Below are positions 19,095-27,043 of a DNA stretch of 64,000 bases, piece by piece. The notes beneath the pieces are model-generated. The model was given only the letters and a program-made list of their open reading frames with translations, made no database searches and was not told where the DNA came from. How positions within the stretch are numbered: position 1 is the stretch's first letter; each line of letters begins with the position of its first letter. Both the position numbers and the translations under genes were made by a program. The DNA comes from Myxococcota bacterium (lineage in GTDB: Bacteria > Myxococcota_A > UBA9160 > JAFDDA01), in contig OZ245817.1 in NCBI GenBank assembly GCA_965228475.1, forward strand, positions 2,336,001 to 2,400,000. The letters run 5' to 3'.

Positions 19095-19224
19095 GCGCGG
19101 ACCACGGGTCGGAGGCTGGCTTGCCCCGCGGGGGTAGGCCATCGGGCCGATGCGGCCAACCCACCGGAAAGACGACGATTCCGCTCACCGAGGCGACACC
19201 GCCTCCGGTGCAGAGGAGTCGTCC

Positions 19225-21768
19225 ATGGCCGCCCTTCGGAACATCGTTCGAAACGCAGTCTTCTTCTACGCGCTGGGCCTGGTTCTGGCGCCCTCGAGCG
19301 CCTTCGCAGCGGACACGGACTCCGACGGCGTCGACGACGCCTTCGACACCTGTTCCGAGCTCGCGCACCCGGCCCAGGGCGACGCCGACGGCGACGGCTT
19401 CGGCGACCCCTGCGATTGCGACTTCGACAACGACGGCTTCTGCAACATCAGCGACTTCACCGCCTTCGTCGCGGACTTCATCGCCGGCCGCGACTCCGGC
19501 GCCGGGACGGACATGAGCAGCGACGGCGCGGTGAACGTCGACGACTTCAGCCTCTTCATCACGGGCTTCACGAGTGGCCGCCCCGGCCCGGGAGCCACGG
19601 GCGCTGCGGACCCGGCGGCGATGTTCCCCGGAGTCGATTGCGAGGGCCCGGCCCTCGAAGACCTCTGCGAGATCACGGTGGTGCCGGGCATCGTCATCGA
19701 GGCGATTCGCGACCAGCTCGAGGCGCTGGCGGACGGTCTCCACGTGACGGGGGACGTTCGGGTACCGGCCTACGAAGGCGTGGCCCTGCTCGGCGATGCG
19801 ACGCTCGTGATCGAGCCCGGCGACGGCCCTTTCGGCTTCGACACGATCCGCGGCACGGCGACCTTGAGCTTCGGCTTCGAGACCGGCTTCTTCGGTGAGG
19901 TGCCGGTCGACTCCGTGATCGTGGATCTCGGCCTCGACCTCGGCGAGAACATCGAGGCCGACATCCCGCTCCAGCCGGACCTTCACTATCTGCTCTTCCA
20001 CGCAGGCGTCGGTTTCGACATCGAAGCGGGCCCGCTGCTGATCGAGGGCCCGGGCGGGTCGATGACCCTGCTCTTCAACCCGAGCGACCCGTTCTTCTAC
20101 GCGGGCGCCCAGGTGAACAACATCCCGATCCCGACCCCCGGCGGGCTCTTCTTCCTGACGGCGGGAGGCGGCGTCGGCATGTCGCACCAGGGCCTGATCC
20201 CCTTCGCTCCGGCGACGACCGACGGGATCGCCGCGCTCTTCCCGAACTTCGAGGGGCACTTCATCCAGCAGGTTCTCGGCGAGCTCCCGACCTGCGCCGG
20301 CTGTCCGACCCTCGAGGGCAACGGCTACGCGATCCTCGACCTCGATCCGCAGGAGGACGGCCTCGCGATCTTCGGGCCCGCCGAAACGGGAGGCGACGTC
20401 CAGCTCGGCATGAACGGCTTCTTCGCGCTGACCGGCTCCCTCGGGCTGGTGAGCCTCGAGGTGGATCTCTTCTCGGCGACGGGCGGGATCATCGCGACCG
20501 AGGGCGACCTCTCGACCTTCGTCGGAGGCCGCATCGCGACCCCGCCGGACCTGTTCGCCTTCAACCTGGACAGCGGCTTCGAGATCTTCCCGGCGCCGAC
20601 CACCCTCGAACTCGGACTCGGCGTGATGCTGAGCTCGGACCCGGCGATGCGCTTCTTCCGCTTCGAGGGGGAGCTGCTGAACGTCGGAGCGTCCGGGGTG
20701 GTCACCAACACCGGCGTGAACGTGACCCCCTTCTCGAGCGAGGGCTTCTTCTTCCAGACGGGCGGTTCGGGCACCTTCATCGGCGGCTCGACCCAGGCCG
20801 AGTACGTGGTCGAAGGCGTGCGCGCGCTCGAAGAGACGAGCTTCGAGATCAACTTCCCGGCCGACGACGACACGGAGATCGTCATGCGCTCCCGCTACGA
20901 GATCGGCAGCAACCGGCTTCGCCAGTCGACGCTCTGGCTGTCGCCGCGGCGCATCGCCCAGGAAGGCCTCCTCGACATGCCGAACTACACCTTCACGATG
21001 TTCGGCGAGCACACGCGGGATGGCACGCTCCTGCAGGGCACTCTCGAGGTGCCGATCCCGTACCACTACCCGGCGCTCGAGGCGATCCTCGAGATCAGCG
21101 ACCTCATCAGCCAGCAGGAAGCGGCGGTGGCCGCCATCGAAGCCGAAGCGGGACAGCTCGCGGGTCAGATCGCGGCAATCCAGGCCCAGCTCGATCCGGC
21201 GATCGATGCCCTGGACGTCGCGCTCGACGTTCTCGAGGACGCCGAGAACGCCCTCGAGGAAAACCTCGACGACATCGCCGACACGGAGCGGATCGACTGC
21301 GGCTGCAGCGAGTGCCAGATCTGGAACGTCGTCTGCTGGACGCAGTGCGGCCTCTGCGAGGGATCGCAGGAAGCGACTCTGATCTACCTCCGCGGTCTCA
21401 CGAGCGGGCTGCGGCGTGCGGTCGAGCTGGCGGAAATCGTGGTCCTCGGGCTCCAGGGGGAGGTCGCCGAATACCAGGTCCAGCTGAATGCCCTCCAGCA
21501 GTCCCTCACCCTCGTGAACGTGGGGCTCACCCCTGCGCTGGCGGCACTCTCGGCGCTCTATGCCCAGCGCGACGCACTCCCGCCCGAGGACGGGGTCTTC
21601 GATGCCGAGGTGACGCTCAGCATGACCCGCGAGGACCTCACCGGCTCGGTCGGCGGCGACTTCCAGGGAACGCCCGTCGGGGCCGGCACGGTCTACATGG
21701 ACGGCGCTCCGCGCGCCTGCTTCCGCCCGCCGGCGCCGGGCGCTCCGGAGTTCTGCACGCTGCTCTAG
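19225..21768 (+). CDS. Large secreted protein: N-terminal Ca-binding (thrombospondin type 3 / dockerin-like) repeats, beta-rich core, C-terminal coiled coil
   Basis: SD GAGGAG, signal peptide (AFA), DTDSDGVDD...DADGDGFGDPCDCDFDNDG...DMSSDGAVNVDDF, and heptad-rich helices flanking CGCSECQIWNVVCWTQCGLC. Confidence 0.75.
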   Translation: MAALRNIVRNAVFFYALGLVLAPSSAFAADTDSDGVDDAFDTCSELAHPAQGDADGDGFGDPCDCDFDNDGFCNISDFTAFVADFIAGRDSGAGTDMSSDGAVNVDDFSLFITGFTSGRPGPGATGAADPAAMFPGVDCEGPALEDLCEITVVPGIVIEAIRDQLEALADGLHVTGDVRVPAYEGVALLGDATLVIEPGDGPFGFDTIRGTATLSFGFETGFFGEVPVDSVIVDLGLDLGENIEADIPLQPDLHYLLFHAGVGFDIEAGPLLIEGPGGSMTLLFNPSDPFFYAGAQVNNIPIPTPGGLFFLTAGGGVGMSHQGLIPFAPATTDGIAALFPNFEGHFIQQVLGELPTCAGCPTLEGNGYAILDLDPQEDGLAIFGPAETGGDVQLGMNGFFALTGSLGLVSLEVDLFSATGGIIATEGDLSTFVGGRIATPPDLFAFNLDSGFEIFPAPTTLELGLGVMLSSDPAMRFFRFEGELLNVGASGVVTNTGVNVTPFSSEGFFFQTGGSGTFIGGSTQAEYVVEGVRALEETSFEINFPADDDTEIVMRSRYEIGSNRLRQSTLWLSPRRIAQEGLLDMPNYTFTMFGEHTRDGTLLQGTLEVPIPYHYPALEAILEISDLISQQEAAVAAIEAEAGQLAGQIAAIQAQLDPAIDALDVALDVLEDAENALEENLDDIADTERIDCGCSECQIWNVVCWTQCGLCEGSQEATLIYLRGLTSGLRRAVELAEIVVLGLQGEVAEYQVQLNALQQSLTLVNVGLTPALAALSALYAQRDALPPEDGVFDAEVTLSMTREDLTGSVGGDFQGTPVGAGTVYMDGAPRACFRPPAPGAPEFCTLL

Positions 21769-22004: not shown

Positions 22005-23387
22005 ATGTCGGAAACCGGAACGAAGCCCTCGCAGCGGGGTCATGCGCGCATCCAGAACTCTCAGCTCGTCCGCATCGGCGTCGTCGGGCTGCTCCTGCTG
22101 GGGCTCCAGATCCCCATCCTGCTCATCGATCAGCAGATCGGCGCACGCCAGGCGACGCGGGACGAGGCGGTCCGGGAGGTCACGAGCCGCTGGGGAGGGG
22201 AGCAGCGCATCCTCGGCCCCGTGCTGCGGGTTCCCTACCGGGCGACCCACGTCGAGGTGGACGACGTCGGGCGGCGGCACACGCGCGAGGTCGTCCGCCA
22301 CGCGAGCTTCCTCCCGCAGGATCTCGAGATCGCCGCGGAGGCGAGCGGGGAGACGCGCTACCGCGGCATCTTCGACGTGCCCGTGTACCGCTCCCGGGTG
22401 GACCTCGTCGGGAGCTTCGGCTCCATCGACTTCGCCGACTGGGACGTCCCCGCGGAGAAGATCCTCTGGGAGCGCGCGGAGCTCCTGGTCGGCATCTCCG
22501 ATGCCCGTGCGCTGCGGGGGCAGCCCGTCGTGGTCTGGCAGGGCGGGGCGTATGCGTTCGAACCCGGCGGTGCCCACCTCGGCGACTGCGCTTCGAGCCT
22601 GCGCGCGAAGCTGGCCGGCGATCGGGCGGAGGACTTCGCGGGGCCGATGACCTTCGAGATTCCCCTCGAGCTGAACGGCGCCGTGCGCATCGCCTTCGCG
22701 CCGGTGGGCGACAGCACGGTGGCCACGCTGCGCTCGAACTGGCCCGATCCGAGCTTCGAGGGGCGCTGGCTCCCCGCCGAGCGATCCATCTCTCCCGAGG
22801 GCTTTTCGGCGCGCTGGGAGGTCTCGCAGATCGGGCGCGGCTATCCGCGGCGCTTCGCGAGCGCCATCGACCACGGTGCCCTGATGTCCGCGACCTTCGG
22901 CGTCGGGTTCCTCTCTCCCGTCGATCCGTACCGCATGGCGGAGCGCAGCGTGAAGTACGAGCTCCTCTTCCTGGCGCTTCCGTTCCTCACGCTCTGGCTC
23001 TTCGAGGTGGTCGGCGGGATCCGGGTGCACCCCGTCCAGTACCTGTTCATCGGGGCGGCCCTGTGTCTCTTCTATCTGCTGCAGCTGGCGCTCGCGGAGC
23101 ATCTCGGCTTCGGACTCGCCTACACGATCGCCGCGGCGAGCGTCGGGGGGACGGTGCTGCTCTACGGCCGCGCGATCCTCGGCGCGGGCTCGCGTGCCTC
23201 CGTGCTCGGCGCGCTCGTCGCGGCCCTCTACGGGTACCTGTACATCCTGCTGCGGGAGCAGGACTTCGCCTTCCTGCTGGGGTCGCTCGGGCTCTTCGCG
23301 GCCCTGGCGCTCGCGATGTGGCTCACGCGGAAGGTGGACTGGTACGCGCTCGACGGGAGCGGGACGGCCCCGCAGACGCCGCGCTAG
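22005..23387 (+). CDS. creD: Inner-membrane protein CreD
   Basis: WGGEQRILGP, RYRGIFDVPVY, SNWPDPSFEG, YRMAERSVKYELLF, VHPVQYLFIG and MWLTRKVDWY. Confidence 0.92.
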   Translation: MSETGTKPSQRGHARIQNSQLVRIGVVGLLLLGLQIPILLIDQQIGARQATRDEAVREVTSRWGGEQRILGPVLRVPYRATHVEVDDVGRRHTREVVRHASFLPQDLEIAAEASGETRYRGIFDVPVYRSRVDLVGSFGSIDFADWDVPAEKILWERAELLVGISDARALRGQPVVVWQGGAYAFEPGGAHLGDCASSLRAKLAGDRAEDFAGPMTFEIPLELNGAVRIAFAPVGDSTVATLRSNWPDPSFEGRWLPAERSISPEGFSARWEVSQIGRGYPRRFASAIDHGALMSATFGVGFLSPVDPYRMAERSVKYELLFLALPFLTLWLFEVVGGIRVHPVQYLFIGAALCLFYLLQLALAEHLGFGLAYTIAAASVGGTVLLYGRAILGAGSRASVLGALVAALYGYLYILLREQDFAFLLGSLGLFAALALAMWLTRKVDWYALDGSGTAPQTPR

Positions 23388-23415
23388 CCCACAGGCGTCT
23401 GCTAGCTTCGCCGTC

Positions 23416-23934
23416 GTGACGGACTCGACCGCCTGGCGACGCTGCAACGCCTGCAAACGACCGATCGCGCTCGGCGCCGTGTACCAGGTCTGCAGCGTCT
23501 CGACCTGCAACCAGAAGCGGACGGGCATGGTGTTCTGCACCGTCGACTGCTGGGAGGTGCACCTGCCGAGTGCGAACCACCGCGAGGCGTGGGCGGTCGA
23601 GAAGACGGCGCCGAGAACGGCCGACGGGCCGGCCAAGGCAACGGCAGCACCGCCGAAGCCTGCGGGGAGGGAGCCGCGGCGTCGGATCGTCCGGCCGGAA
23701 GCCGTGTCACGTCCTGCGAAAGCCGCCGCGGCGAAGGGTCCCGTCGACGACGCCATTCTCATCGTTGCGAGCCGGCTCAAGGACTACGTCCGGGCCCGCT
23801 CCGGCTTCAACACCTCGGACCGCGCCCTCGGGCCGCTCTCGGACATCGTCCGGCGGGCCGTGGACGAGGCCATCGAGCGGGCGCGCCGCGACGAGCGCAA
23901 GACCGTCCTCGACCGCGACATCCCCTCTCGCTGA
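23416..23934 (+). CDS. Bacterial histone-fold protein with N-terminal Cys/His zinc-binding domain
   Basis: N-terminal CNACKRPI...CSVSTC...FCTVDCWEVH...H, a basic Pro/Ala linker, and C-terminal ILIVASRLKDYVR...NTSDRALGPLSDIVRRAVDEAIERARRDERKTVLDRD, with the histone-fold RKTVxxxD signature. Confidence 0.82.
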   Translation: MTDSTAWRRCNACKRPIALGAVYQVCSVSTCNQKRTGMVFCTVDCWEVHLPSANHREAWAVEKTAPRTADGPAKATAAPPKPAGREPRRRIVRPEAVSRPAKAAAAKGPVDDAILIVASRLKDYVRARSGFNTSDRALGPLSDIVRRAVDEAIERARRDERKTVLDRDIPSR

Positions 23935-24014
23935 GATCCGTGGGCTCGCCACTTTCGGCGTCGGGACGCCACCCATGCATGCCGGGGTTCATCCCCGGTA
24001 GCGGGAGGTGTGCC

Positions 24015-24647
24015 ATGCGTGGAATCGGACGAGTCGCGGCCTTCTCGGCTGCCGTTGGCCTGGCGGTTGCCGCGGGAGCGGAGGCGTCGGCGGCTCCCAT
24101 CTACCTGAACATCGACAACATCACGGTCGAGGTCGGCCCGGGAACGTCGGCGGGCAGCTTCAACAACACGTTCGCGAGCGGCCAGACGATCGACAAGGTG
24201 ATCGACGCGCCCTCCGCCGACGCCGCGGAGTTCCACAACCAGACGACCCACATCTGGTTCACCGCCGATCAGATCGGTGGAGGCCTCGAGCTGCTCTTCG
24301 ACTTCGGCCAGGGCTACGACATCTCCACCCTGCATTTCTGGAACTACACCGGCGAGGGCTTCGACGTCGACCAGGTCGACTTCACTTTCTTCAACCCCGG
24401 AAACGTCGAGGTCGGCGATCTGACGATCAACCCTGCACTGGGCAGCAGCCCGGGCATCCTCGCCGAAGACATCCCGCTGCCCGCACCCATCAACGTCCGC
24501 TACGTCACGGCGTTCCTGACGGGTTCGAACGGAGAGGTCGACTTCCAGAACATCGGGTTCACCGCCGAGGTGTCGGTGCCGGAGCCGTCGCTTCTCGCGT
24601 TGCTCGGTGGCGTCCTCGTCGCCGTCTCCAGACGCCGGCTGGTCTGA
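24015..24647 (+). CDS. PEP-CTERM surface protein (discoidin/galactose-binding-like passenger suspected)
   Basis: SD GGGAGG, signal peptide (ASA), LFDFGQGYDISTLHFWNY, and C-terminal VPEPSLLALLGGVLVAVSRRR. Confidence 0.85.
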   Translation: MRGIGRVAAFSAAVGLAVAAGAEASAAPIYLNIDNITVEVGPGTSAGSFNNTFASGQTIDKVIDAPSADAAEFHNQTTHIWFTADQIGGGLELLFDFGQGYDISTLHFWNYTGEGFDVDQVDFTFFNPGNVEVGDLTINPALGSSPGILAEDIPLPAPINVRYVTAFLTGSNGEVDFQNIGFTAEVSVPEPSLLALLGGVLVAVSRRRLV

Positions 24648-26251: not shown

Positions 26252-26902
26252 CTAGCCCTGCCGGCGGCCCCACAAGAGGAGCCCGGCGATCGAGAGCAAC
26301 GCCAGGCTCGACGGCTCGGGGACGATCCGGAAGTTCGGGCCGAAGTAGCCGTCGGTGCGTCCGGGCTGTTCGGCGGCCGGGAAGTCGAAGCCGTTCGCGT
26401 CGCGGGGTGCGCCGTAGCTGATCTGGGGGACGGCCGTCGCGTCGACGACGAAGCGGAACTCGTCGCACAGGGCGCAGTTCGTGCTCGCCGTGTTGTCCGC
26501 ACCGATCACGTACTCGCCCGGAGCCAGCACGAGAAGCTCGATGTCGTTGAAGAGCCAGCGGCCCTCGGCGGCGGTCGAGGCGAAGGGGGTGCTGGCGTCG
26601 GTGATGATCGTCTCGGCCAGGAGCTCCTCCGAGCCGTCGTCGCGCCAGAGCCGGATCCGGTGGTCTTGGCGAATGCCTTCCTCGGCACTGCCCGAGGGCA
26701 GGAAGGAGTCGAAGAAGCCGAGGCCATCGACGGTGACCTCCTCGTGAACCGTGAAGCTCCAACCGAGGGTCAGGCTCTCCGAGAAGCGGTTCCCGGTTTC
26801 GCCGACGAAGTCGACGGCCAGGACGGCGTGGGCCGCCGCCGGGGTGAGCAGGGCGAGCGCCAGGGCGAAGGCGGAGACGGAACGGCGGATGGCTGTGGCC
26901 AC
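26252..26902 (-). CDS. PEP-CTERM surface protein (DUF4082-like passenger)
   Basis: Signal peptide (AHA), TLGWSFTV...DGLGFFD...GYFGPNF, and C-terminal VPEPSSLALLSIAGLLLWGRRQG. Confidence 0.85.
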   Translation of the reverse strand: MATAIRRSVSAFALALALLTPAAAHAVLAVDFVGETGNRFSESLTLGWSFTVHEEVTVDGLGFFDSFLPSGSAEEGIRQDHRIRLWRDDGSEELLAETIITDASTPFASTAAEGRWLFNDIELLVLAPGEYVIGADNTASTNCALCDEFRFVVDATAVPQISYGAPRDANGFDFPAAEQPGRTDGYFGPNFRIVPEPSSLALLSIAGLLLWGRRQG

Positions 26903-27043
26903 GATCGGGACTCCCGCGCGTCCGGCGCGCGGAGCCCGGGCATCGGGCGGCACGGCCGGAGTTGGTCCCTGGGAAGTGGTCGGAGGGGGGCCGTTGTGGC
27001 AACCGATCGGCAAAGAACGGGCAAACCCCGGGGGATCGGCGGG

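Follow-up and report, generated by a model that had tools for sequence, protein, structure and literature searches.

The study of bacterial histones is a young field, in which bench work has covered only HBb, Bd0055-type singlets and the Leptospira protein HLp. A further group, the ZZ histones, belongs to the alpha3-histone subfamily, with D0LYE7 from Haliangium ochraceum as an example (Schwab et al., Nat Commun 2024, PMC11390915); our literature search returned no experimental work on its members. In their description of the family, Schwab et al. (2024, PMC11390915) present eukaryotic ZZ domains as peptide readers and report that the peptide-binding pocket of these domains is not conserved in ZZ histones. 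Here, we analyze a protein encoded at 23416-23934 of the window, the whole 64,000-nucleotide stretch of myxococcotal DNA under study, which almost certainly belongs to the ZZ-histone family, as judged from its sequence. Because its architecture fits that of the ZZ histones as Schwab et al. (2024) catalogued them computationally, a placement already proposed by an initial sequence-only reading, we regard it as a fresh member of a known, uncharacterized family and not as a new architecture.

The gene is delimited by GC3, in-frame start codons and homologues:

23416..23934, plus strand: ZZ-histone gene, GTG start, 172 codons and a TGA stop

As that reading had recognized, the 172-aa frame is hidden inside a longer call: the mechanical ORF spans 23194-23934 (246 aa), and 23194 and 23416 are its only in-frame start codons. 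GC3 is 0.88 over 23416-23934 and 0.94 in each folded domain; the in-frame stretch ahead of it (23194-23415) combines a GC3 of 0.70 with a GC2 of 0.95, the off-frame signature of creD, which ends at 23387 (stop at 23385-23387). In a 20-sequence alignment, 23416 is the start column, or lies at most two columns off, in homologues without a long N-terminal extension, and 97 of 188 family proteins have their first Cys at position 10. We therefore treat the gene as real and, on these sequence criteria, the GTG at 23416 as its correct start. At E<=1e-3 the protein matches 2598 database proteins (~2,600), mostly from Myxococcota MAGs, along with 592 cluster representatives (50% identity), numbers that by sequence comparison lie far above chance. 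Searches of family collections gave no match in PHROGs, nothing significant in Pfam and a sub-threshold hit to the NCBIfam model archaea_histone (16.7 bits vs a cut-off of 50).

Two putative signals flank the gene:

23403..23408, plus strand: -10-like hexamer TAGCTT, inside GCTAGCTT, with no Shine-Dalgarno between hexamer and GTG
23982..23998, plus strand: GC-rich hairpin CCGGGG-TTCAT-CCCCGG in the 3' intergenic region, from a fold of 23925-24020

The hexamer lies precisely 7 nt ahead of the GTG, the position first given for it, and leaderless or near-leaderless expression is plausible from the upstream sequence. A competing account, which concerns expression only, would have the gene co-transcribed with creD, its translation depending on re-initiation or on weak internal initiation, with TAGCTT as a chance occurrence. 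Both genes lie on the same strand with 28 nt between the creD stop and the GTG, and a generic sigma-70 scan of 23000-24200 found no promoter and did not detect TAGCTT. Nor does a clear terminator separate the two genes, since a hairpin spanning the creD stop folds no more stably than shuffled sequence (z -1.1). This account is at odds, however, with the recurrence of an upstream element, GCTANNNT: 26 of 77 homologous loci carry it, compared with a baseline of about 1% per 60-nt window, and the window's copy fits this family-wide element. It also sits poorly with four other homologues lacking a Shine-Dalgarno, in which TANNNT ends 6-11 nt ahead of the start, and with the rarity of this hexamer-to-start geometry, which precedes just 0.48% of all ATG/GTG codons in the genome. 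Finally, creD adjoins a homologue in 0 of 80 loci, and we give co-transcription somewhat less than even odds. The genes upstream and downstream likewise adjoin a homologue in 0 of 80 loci, and all-against-all clustering of flanking ORFs yielded families shared by 10 of the 80 at most; the largest, thiolase-like and enoyl-CoA-hydratase-like, probably reflect local synteny. Since no neighbor family exceeds that count and creD is never adjacent elsewhere, the gene would stand alone with its own promoter, its mRNA probably being leaderless or near-leaderless. On the 3' side, the fold of 23925-24020 reaches -49.9 kcal/mol (z -3.0; 0 of 200 shuffles as stable); its hairpin is a possible terminator without a T-run, at a place where the terminator scan made no call. 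Rfam returned no RNA family for 22800-24300.

The N-terminal part of the protein is a candidate metal-binding domain:

23428..23610, plus strand: two-zinc ZZ-like finger, residues 5-65, with ligands C10, C13, C41, C45 / C26, C31, H49, H55

The Cys/His cluster seen at the outset reads C10-xx-C13 ... C26-xxxx-C31 ... C41-xxx-C45-xxx-H49 ... H55, and its division into a C4 and a C2H2 site follows the family description in Schwab et al. (2024, PMC11390915). All eight ligands, together with R161, are invariant in 73 aligned sequences of 36-69% identity. The ligands are invariant also in 77 domain sequences, across which 13 of 58 columns do not vary; the zinc domain is the most strictly conserved part of the protein. 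Of 80 related loci, 77 carry the full ligand motif, and the remaining three are cut by a contig end or contain N. In the AlphaFold2 (AF2) model the domain has a pLDDT of 94-98, with strands at 6-9, 16-18, 22-26 and 60-64 and a helix at 43-53. Residues 1-60 are thus predicted, from sequence and model, to form a compact cross-brace finger with ligands sufficient for two zinc ions, and the combination of eight invariant ligands with a ZZ-like modeled fold upholds the suggestion of a metal-binding domain.

Structural neighbors of this domain are weak. Foldseek with residues 1-66 retrieved the p62 ZZ domain 6miu (prob 0.91, TM 0.50) and 9lgr (TM 0.59), with ZZ neighbors spanning E 0.07-0.4 and TM 0.50-0.62; VIA placed ZZ domains at Z 4.0-4.8 (7dd9, Z 4.4; 6e86, Z 4.0), a range that its own guidance assigns to common arrangements. 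The matches with a stated identity are all ZZ domains (p62, BIG, Nbr1, ZZZ3). A TRASH finger, considered as another identity, is unsupported, ZZ domains being the best structural neighbors. At the sequence level, the Pfam ZZ family PF00569 matched 0 of the 77 domain sequences at E<=1; weak Pfam matches were to DUF7576 (26/77, best E 0.014), C1_2, zf-FCS, zf-HIT and zf-MYND, and comparison with PDB sequences gave no link to solved structures (best E 0.57). A stand-alone 64-aa form of the domain occurs in seven 'Rokubacteria' loci, which argues that it works as an independent module. A search for fusions found no partner but histone folds, bar one longer protein (446 aa, PF00296) that is probably a merged gene call; seven shorter proteins that also turned up are probably fragments.

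The C-terminal part was identified by phmmer, profile, Foldseek, VIA and the AF2 model:

23746..23931, plus strand: alpha3-truncated histone fold, residues 111-172

Here, the proposal that the last ~60 aa form a Bd0055/HBb-type histone fold is supported. A single-sequence phmmer search reached HBb (8cmp/8fvx) at E 7.6e-5, and a 61-sequence profile gave a gapless 58-residue match to 8fvx/8cmp at E 1.4e-18, followed by HTkC (9f2c, 1.8e-9), HLp (9qt0, 6.6e-9) and HMfB (0.0073). The full-length model has a pLDDT of 87.9, with 88-98 in the histone fold, and comprises alpha1 (118-129), alpha2 (135-158) and a one-turn alpha3 (166-168); it superposes on 9ezz_B in Foldseek (TM 0.87, rmsd 1.1 A) and on 8cmp_A in VIA (Z 9.2, rmsd 1.2 A, 58/58 residues). 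Its pTM is 0.50, so that the inter-domain arrangement is undefined in the model. The RKTVxxxD motif is present as R161-K-T163-V-L-D-R-D168, which also fits RxTxxxxD. DNA contacts listed in the HBb paper (N22, R57, S9, T53, T8, S24, K10, K12, K52, K16) correspond in the same order to N132, R167, S119, T163, A118, S134, R120, K122, K162 and R126, i.e., nine of ten are kept, seven identical and two as K->R, with T8 changed to Ala. The RD clamp D49/R51/D58 of HBb is D159/R161/D168 here, and its interface residues L31, I35, L38, V11 and I59 are L141, V145, A148, L121 and I169; by this alignment the hydrophobic positions of the dimer interface are kept.

It could be argued that the histone fold is a non-DNA-binding dimerization scaffold, a role argued for DUF1931 proteins and many TAF-type folds, and that the Cys-rich domain senses metal or redox state or binds RNA. 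In favor of this, a set of eight Cys/His residues might in principle respond to redox state or metal, the zinc domain has a mildly basic pI of 8.7, and the profile match 9qt0 is labeled 'DUF1931 domain-containing protein'. That same entry is, however, titled as the DNA-binding bacterial histone HLp. The retained HBb contacts and K-T loop, which DUF1931 proteins lack as far as the source describing them goes, speak against a scaffold, as does the strongly basic linker, and we consider it very improbable.

Ten natural relatives carry the ZZ domain followed by two tandem histone folds. In an AF2 model of one such doublet (pLDDT 85.9), the best neighbors are single-chain histone pseudodimers, with 1f1e on top (E 1.2e-5, 136 columns) and Melbournevirus doublets, H2A-H2B fusions and 1wwi also present; the doublets are accordingly modeled, and predicted to fold, as pseudodimers. 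Together with the kept interface and DNA-contact residues, they lend indirect support to a homodimer that would bind and bend DNA.

Between the two folded domains lies a tether, recognized from its composition and low pLDDT, that contains a short conserved motif:

23611..23745, plus strand: flexible Pro/Ala/Arg/Lys linker, residues 66-110 (45 aa)
23671..23697, plus strand: linker motif E-P-R-R-R-I-V-R-P, residues 86-94, consensus [GP][PV]RR[ILR][VIL][RV]

The linker holds 11 K+R, 3 D+E, 9 P and 12 A (pI 11.9), is modeled at pLDDT 64-70 without secondary structure and varies in sequence across the family. The description of a basic, tail-like linker therefore suits the window's member and its close kin; it does not extend to the family as a whole, whose linkers are rich in Ala and Pro and carry a net charge of +1 at the median. 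Family-wide conservation is limited to the short RR-hydrophobic motif. RR is found in 153 of 188 family linkers, at a median of 30 aa past the last His (IQR 28-33) and 20 aa ahead of the histone fold (IQR 19-24), and R89 is invariant in the 20-sequence alignment. In the monomer AF2 model, pLDDT does not rise over residues 81-100 (64-67), and docking of the motif is thus without AF2 support.

Within the phylum, the ZZ domain is present in 87 of 301 genomes. Presence is dense in groups of the source organism's own order and class (f7, 6/6; f8, 8/9; f10, 17/19; f12, 7/9; f13, 9/10), and in the order the gene is, by these searches, near-universal, single-copy and usually the sole histone-fold gene detected. 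With the two queries used, it is the only such gene in 26 of 30 carrying relatives. Obligate pairing with a stand-alone histone paralogue is rejected, a separate singlet being found in just 4 of 30 ZZ-bearing relatives. Replacement of HU is rejected as well: PF00216 (HU/IHF) occurs in 41 of 41 relatives, so that the ZZ histone need not serve as sole nucleoid protein.

We favor, with a probability of roughly 0.6 for the mechanism as a whole, a two-module nucleoid protein that packages DNA. The histone folds of two chains would join in a handshake, and the resulting dimer would, by analogy with HBb, hold DNA by its backbone at the minor grooves, irrespective of sequence, and bend it. Each dimer would carry two zinc modules on flexible basic tethers of ~45 residues, and through these modules it may make an additional contact, whether with a protein or peptide, in the manner of eukaryotic ZZ domains, or with nucleic acid. 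Electrostatic grip on DNA may also come from the basic linker and the RR-hydrophobic motif within it.

How abundant such a protein is bears directly on this mechanism. Schwab et al. (2024, PMC11390915), in their remarks on B. bacteriovorus, describe its ZZ histone as lowly expressed and of low abundance, which is evidence against a role in bulk packaging. The protein might instead be a low-abundance adaptor or regulator, in which the histone dimer anchors to DNA and the zinc module recruits a specific partner or targets particular sites or DNA structures. According to Hocher 2023, Bd3044, which we infer to be the B. bacteriovorus ZZ histone, cannot take over when Bd0055 is lost, in line with such a role. 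The universal HU/IHF, the exceptional conservation and stand-alone occurrence of the zinc domain and the peptide reading of eukaryotic ZZ domains point the same way. Yet no conserved neighbor gene in the 80 loci points to a partner, the zinc domain is fused to histone folds only (setting aside the probable gene-call fusion), and its frequent status as sole histone-fold gene fits a self-sufficient chromatin role. On balance, we consider an adaptor or regulator unlikely, and retain the DNA-packaging, two-module protein as the preferred reading.

A bolder version, which we hold to be improbable, makes the ZZ histone the main histone-fold chromatin protein of the order, and usually its sole one, in contrast to its minor accessory place in Bdellovibrio, with the zinc module binding the RR motif of another dimer or, as an autoinhibitory latch, its own. 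If true, dimers could be cross-linked and DNA bridged or condensed under regulation, in effect a stripped-down bacterial counterpart of the tail-reader interactions of chromatin. More generally, should the zinc module read a basic peptide or a DNA structure, bacteria would pair histone folds with reader-type domains. A single member by itself adds little; single-copy near-universality in the order, the fixed RR-hydrophobic motif, the predicted doublet pseudodimers and the stand-alone zinc modules are additions at the family level and offer concrete handles for a first characterization. The ZZ figures or HMM logos in the supplement of Schwab et al. (2024) may already contain the linker motif or the doublets.

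Set against the catalogued ZZ histones, as far as the published family description goes, the window's protein has the same architecture (an N-terminal two-zinc finger, C4 + C2H2, and a C-terminal, bacterial-dimer-like truncated fold), comes from shared taxa (Myxococcota and Bdellovibrionota) and coincides with the published HMM numbering at C10, C13, C26, C31, C41, H49 and H55. It differs in the fourth C4 ligand, given there as C43, whereas in our alignments (73 + 77 relatives) C45 is invariant and position 43 is Val. The linker of this member is also unusually basic and its gene lacks a Shine-Dalgarno.

The eukaryotic ZZ fingers (p62/SQSTM1, Nbr1, ZZZ3, HERC2, p300; PF00569) appear alike in cross-brace two-zinc topology and overall fold, a resemblance with weak structural scores. 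The third ligand pair of ZZ domains is CxxC, whereas here it is CxxxC-xxx-H.

The archaeal nucleosomal histone HMfB (1A7W) shares the fold and RxTxxxxD, and the profile matches it distantly (E 0.0073), over profile positions 29-59 only. Nucleosomal histones have a full alpha3 and a four-helix-bundle dimer-dimer interface; here alpha3 is truncated to the single turn at 166-168 and the chain ends at 172, four residues past D168, so that the tetramer/hypernucleosome interface is absent. From sequence and model, wrapping of DNA is not expected.

The closest solved relative is HBb/Bd0055 of Bdellovibrio bacteriovorus (8CMP, 8FVX, 9EZZ, 9F0E), whose fold is homologous over its full length, without gaps, at 33% identity and a model rmsd of 1.0-1.2 A, and which shares the one-turn alpha3, the D-R-D clamp, the K-T loop and 9/10 DNA contacts. 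HBb has nothing beyond the histone fold (about 60 aa) and is highly expressed and essential, whereas the ZZ histone adds 110 N-terminal residues and is thus no histone fold alone. At another locus, the same genome encodes a protein of the HBb type, a 62-aa singlet that is 57% identical to the histone domain of the window's ZZ histone.

The studied gene is a frame of 172 codons that runs from a GTG start to a TGA stop (window positions 23416-23934, + strand). The mechanical ORF list merged this frame into a 246-aa ORF from 23194, in agreement with the sequence-only reading of an ORF hidden inside a longer call; 23194 and 23416 are the only in-frame start codons. The 246-aa version was rejected as the gene. 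Its 222 additional 5′ nucleotides overlap the 3′ end of creD. GC3 and GC2 of the histone frame are 0.70 and 0.95 in this upstream stretch; GC3 is 0.88 over the 172-codon ORF and 0.94 in each folded domain. Homologues without a long N-terminal extension begin at 23416 or at most two alignment columns away, and 97 of 188 family proteins have their first Cys at position 10. Features in and around the gene are:

19150-21768, + strand: 872-aa protein with thrombospondin type 3 repeats near its N-terminus (Pfam TSP_3, 8.1e-8)
22005-23387, + strand: full-length creD, cell-envelope integrity protein (Pfam CreD, 7.7e-137; NCBIfam, 1.5e-138)
23671-23697, + strand: RR-hydrophobic motif EPRRRIVRP (residues 86-94), matching the family linker motif
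24015-24647, + strand: secreted-looking protein ending in a VPEPS...hydrophobic...RRR tail
26252-27013, - strand: secreted-looking protein ending in a VPEPS...hydrophobic...RRR tail

The two tails may be PEP-CTERM sorting signals. A conserved gene neighbourhood was sought across 80 homologous loci and not found, and creD adjacency is kept in none of them.

By sequence and model, the C-terminal domain is a histone fold of the HBb (Bd0055) type. A single-sequence search matched residues 114-169 without gaps to the HBb chains 8cmp and 8fvx (E 7.6e-5), and a profile of 61 family domains reached E 1.4e-18 over 58 positions of HBb, followed by HTkC (1.8e-9), Leptospira HLp (6.6e-9), HmvA (3.9e-6) and, as a distant match, HMfB (0.0073). 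The AlphaFold2 model, built on a 73-sequence alignment (mean pLDDT 87.9), places α1 at 118-129, α2 at 135-158 and a single-turn α3 in the histone domain (pLDDT 88-98). Foldseek superposed this domain on HBb chains with TM 0.84-0.89 and rmsd 1.0-1.2 Å. An independent structure search of 48,161 representative chains ranked 8cmp_A first (Z 9.2, rmsd 1.2 Å, 58/58 residues), then HLp (Z 8.2), HTkC (Z 7.9) and many eukaryotic histone-fold proteins. The Cys/His pattern and basic linker of the sequence-only reading are present as described, and its RKTVxxxD motif reads RKTVLDRD. Residues were mapped by single-sequence alignment to those named in PMC11317129, HBb residue n corresponding to n+110. The RD clamp (HBb D49/R51/D58) becomes D159/R161/D168, and the dimer-interface residues L31, I35, L38, V11 and I59 become L141, V145, A148, L121 and I169. 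Seven of ten key HBb DNA contacts are unchanged (N132, R167, S119, T163, S134, K122, K162), two show a K-to-R substitution (R120, R126) and the tenth is altered (T8 to A118). The chain stops four residues past D168; it thus shares the truncated α3 of HBb and would be expected to lack a nucleosome-type tetramer interface.

Support for pairing comes from family members with two folds. Ten representatives (231-274 aa; P0122, P0123, P0126-P0130, P0136, P0144 and P0149, with genomic examples G018:C87 and G025:C86) have two tandem histone folds C-terminal to the zinc domain, and motif counts identify doublets in 12/188 family proteins; Schwab et al. 2024 (PMC11390915) do not mention doublets in their main text. 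In the AlphaFold2 model of one doublet, P0127 (pLDDT 85.9 overall, 91-98 in both folds), loop β-bridges are formed. Its top PDB match is the M. kandleri doublet 1f1e (E 1.2e-5, 136 columns), followed by Melbournevirus doublets, engineered H2A-H2B fusions, the SOS histone domain and 1wwi; the best matches are single-chain histone pseudodimers. Because doublets are modelled like such pseudodimers, they lend Rosetta-stone-type support to the view that the studied ZZ protein, with its one fold, would pair with a second copy. Our preferred reading, to which we assign a probability of about 0.6, is a DNA-bending histone-fold homodimer with two tethered zinc modules. The protein would pair through its histone fold, and the homodimer would bind DNA non-specifically at minor grooves and bend it like HBb, with the two zinc modules of each dimer attached through flexible, basic linkers. 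These modules may read peptides, bind nucleic acids or link dimers via the RR motif.

The N-terminal zinc domain is, as judged from profile searches, an orphan by sequence. Its profile found no match among PDB sequences (best E 0.57), none of 77 zinc-domain sequences matched Pfam ZZ at E<=1, and their weak Pfam matches were scattered over DUF7576, C1_2 and FCS-, HIT- and MYND-type fingers. Over these 77 sequences, 13 of 58 columns are invariant, among them all eight ligands and the core CSVSTCN. Residues 5-65 are modelled as a small β-rich unit with one helix at 43-53 (pLDDT 94-98). Every structural neighbour with the matching domain named in its title is a ZZ domain, but the scores are weak: several p62/SQSTM1 entries (best Foldseek E 0.072, prob 0.91, TM 0.50), Arabidopsis BIG (Foldseek TM 0.59) and, in the Foldseek-independent search, Nbr1 (Z 4.4) and ZZZ3 (Z 4.0). 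Two chains scored higher in that search, the chromatin-complex subunits 6tda_L (Z 4.8) and 9ynv_M (Z 4.5), presumably the ZZ-bearing Rsc8 and Ada2. As such low scores fall, by the tool's own note, among common arrangements, the designation "ZZ-like" is consistent with the model but not proven. Stand-alone zinc-domain proteins of ~64 aa with all eight ligands occur at seven loci of 'Candidatus Rokubacteria' MAGs (L077-L083, e.g. L081:3980-4174), with no histone fold detected in 4-kb flanks. The only longer zinc-domain protein, P0272 (446 aa), also has a luciferase-like monooxygenase domain (PF00296) and is probably two genes joined by the gene caller.

The linker has a family median length of 41 aa (Ala 19.5%, Pro 17.7%), and its net charge of +8 in the studied protein is exceptional against a family median of +1. 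Within this otherwise variable segment, 153/188 family proteins contain an RR pair in the context [GP][PV]RR[ILR][VIL][RV], a median of 30 residues past the last His (IQR 28-33) and 20 ahead of the histone fold (IQR 19-24). The main text of PMC11390915 makes no mention of this motif.

Of 3042 candidates from a word-indexed protein search, 2598 matched at E<=1e-3; the best 120 (58-95% identity, 135-218 aa) are mostly unnamed, with three called 'histone H3/H4' (JGI) and one oddly 'predicted amidophosphoribosyltransferase'. Exhaustive HMMER searching of 50%-identity representatives gave 592 at E<=1e-3, 354 at E<=1e-10 and 55 at E<=1e-30. The only invariant columns in an alignment of 73 sequences (36-69% identity) are those of the eight metal ligands and R161. 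By record title, the 80 loci are chiefly from MAGs of Myxococcota or 'Deltaproteobacteria', and some are from Bdellovibrionota. The zinc-domain profile matched 87/301 sampled genomes of the phylum (82/272 of high quality): in families belonging to the same order and class as the window, almost every genome has the domain, mostly in single copy, and many other families have no match (e.g. 0/26, 0/23, 0/18, 0/18). Matches including the zinc domain occur in 30/41 close relatives, and a separate HBb-type singlet in 8/41, four of these among the 30. With singlets so rare among carriers, these queries usually detect the ZZ histone and no further histone-fold gene. In the two nearest relatives, whose genomes are 89% and 81% complete, they detect a singlet and no ZZ histone. 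The window's genome has both, its 62-aa singlet lying outside the window (G000:C1:4014547-4014732, + strand; L002:1630-1818) and being 57% identical to the ZZ protein's histone fold. A purine-rich GAGAGGAAAAGGGGG stretch lies immediately 5′ of the singlet's ATG.

The main rival reading holds that the protein is a low-abundance adaptor or regulator, not a bulk packaging protein. The B. bacteriovorus ZZ histone is reported as lowly expressed (PMC11390915); HU/IHF-family genes are present in 41/41 relatives. On expression of the gene, two observations weigh against a leaderless start: a generic scan called no promoter, and creD, which has the same orientation, stops just 28 nt before the GTG. Across 77 homologous loci, 61 have a strict Shine-Dalgarno-like pentamer 4-18 nt 5′ of the start, and 26 (within L004-L083) have a GCTANNNT element within 60 nt upstream, against a baseline of 1% per 60-nt window. 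This element (such as GGCTACGCT or GCTATGCT) mostly ends 18-33 nt 5′ of the start codon and is probably the family's -10 promoter element. The window's copy, GCTAGCTT, ends 7 nt 5′ of the GTG, where the TAGCTT hexamer of the sequence-only reading is indeed present, and no Shine-Dalgarno sequence precedes this start. Four other homologues lacking one have TANNNT ending 6-11 nt 5′ of the start, a type of geometry that precedes 0.48% of all ATG/GTG in the window's genome. Given the -10-like element so close to the GTG, the missing Shine-Dalgarno sequence and this genome-wide rarity, leaderless expression is a reasonable reading, held at roughly even odds. A stable GC-rich hairpin (z -3.0) lies 3′ of the gene.

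ZZ histones have been defined as an N-terminal ZZ-type finger with C4 and C2H2 sites joined to a bacterial-dimer-like histone fold, with HMM ligands C10, C13, C41, C43 and C26, C31, H49, H55 (PMC11390915). Full-text literature searches found no biochemical study of any ZZ histone. The studied gene almost certainly belongs to this known, uncharacterised family. The peptide pocket of eukaryotic ZZ domains is described as not conserved in ZZ histones, and half of the proteomes with a ZZ histone as having no second histone (PMC11390915). In B. bacteriovorus, the second histone-fold protein, Bd3044, is described as longer and less conserved, and as unable to take the place of Bd0055 (Hocher et al. 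2023, PMC10627809); its transcripts are reported to peak late in growth phase (2025 preprint, 10.1101/2025.09.24.678257). Seven of the eight published ligand numbers coincide with those of the studied protein. The fourth C4 ligand is given as C43 (C53 in D0LYE7; Fig. 4 legend, PMC11390915), whereas the studied protein and every relative in family alignments A1-A3 have this Cys at position 45; position 43 is Val here and mostly Val in the relatives. Judged from these alignments, the discrepancy probably reflects a misnumbered residue in the Schwab paper and not a real difference between the proteins.
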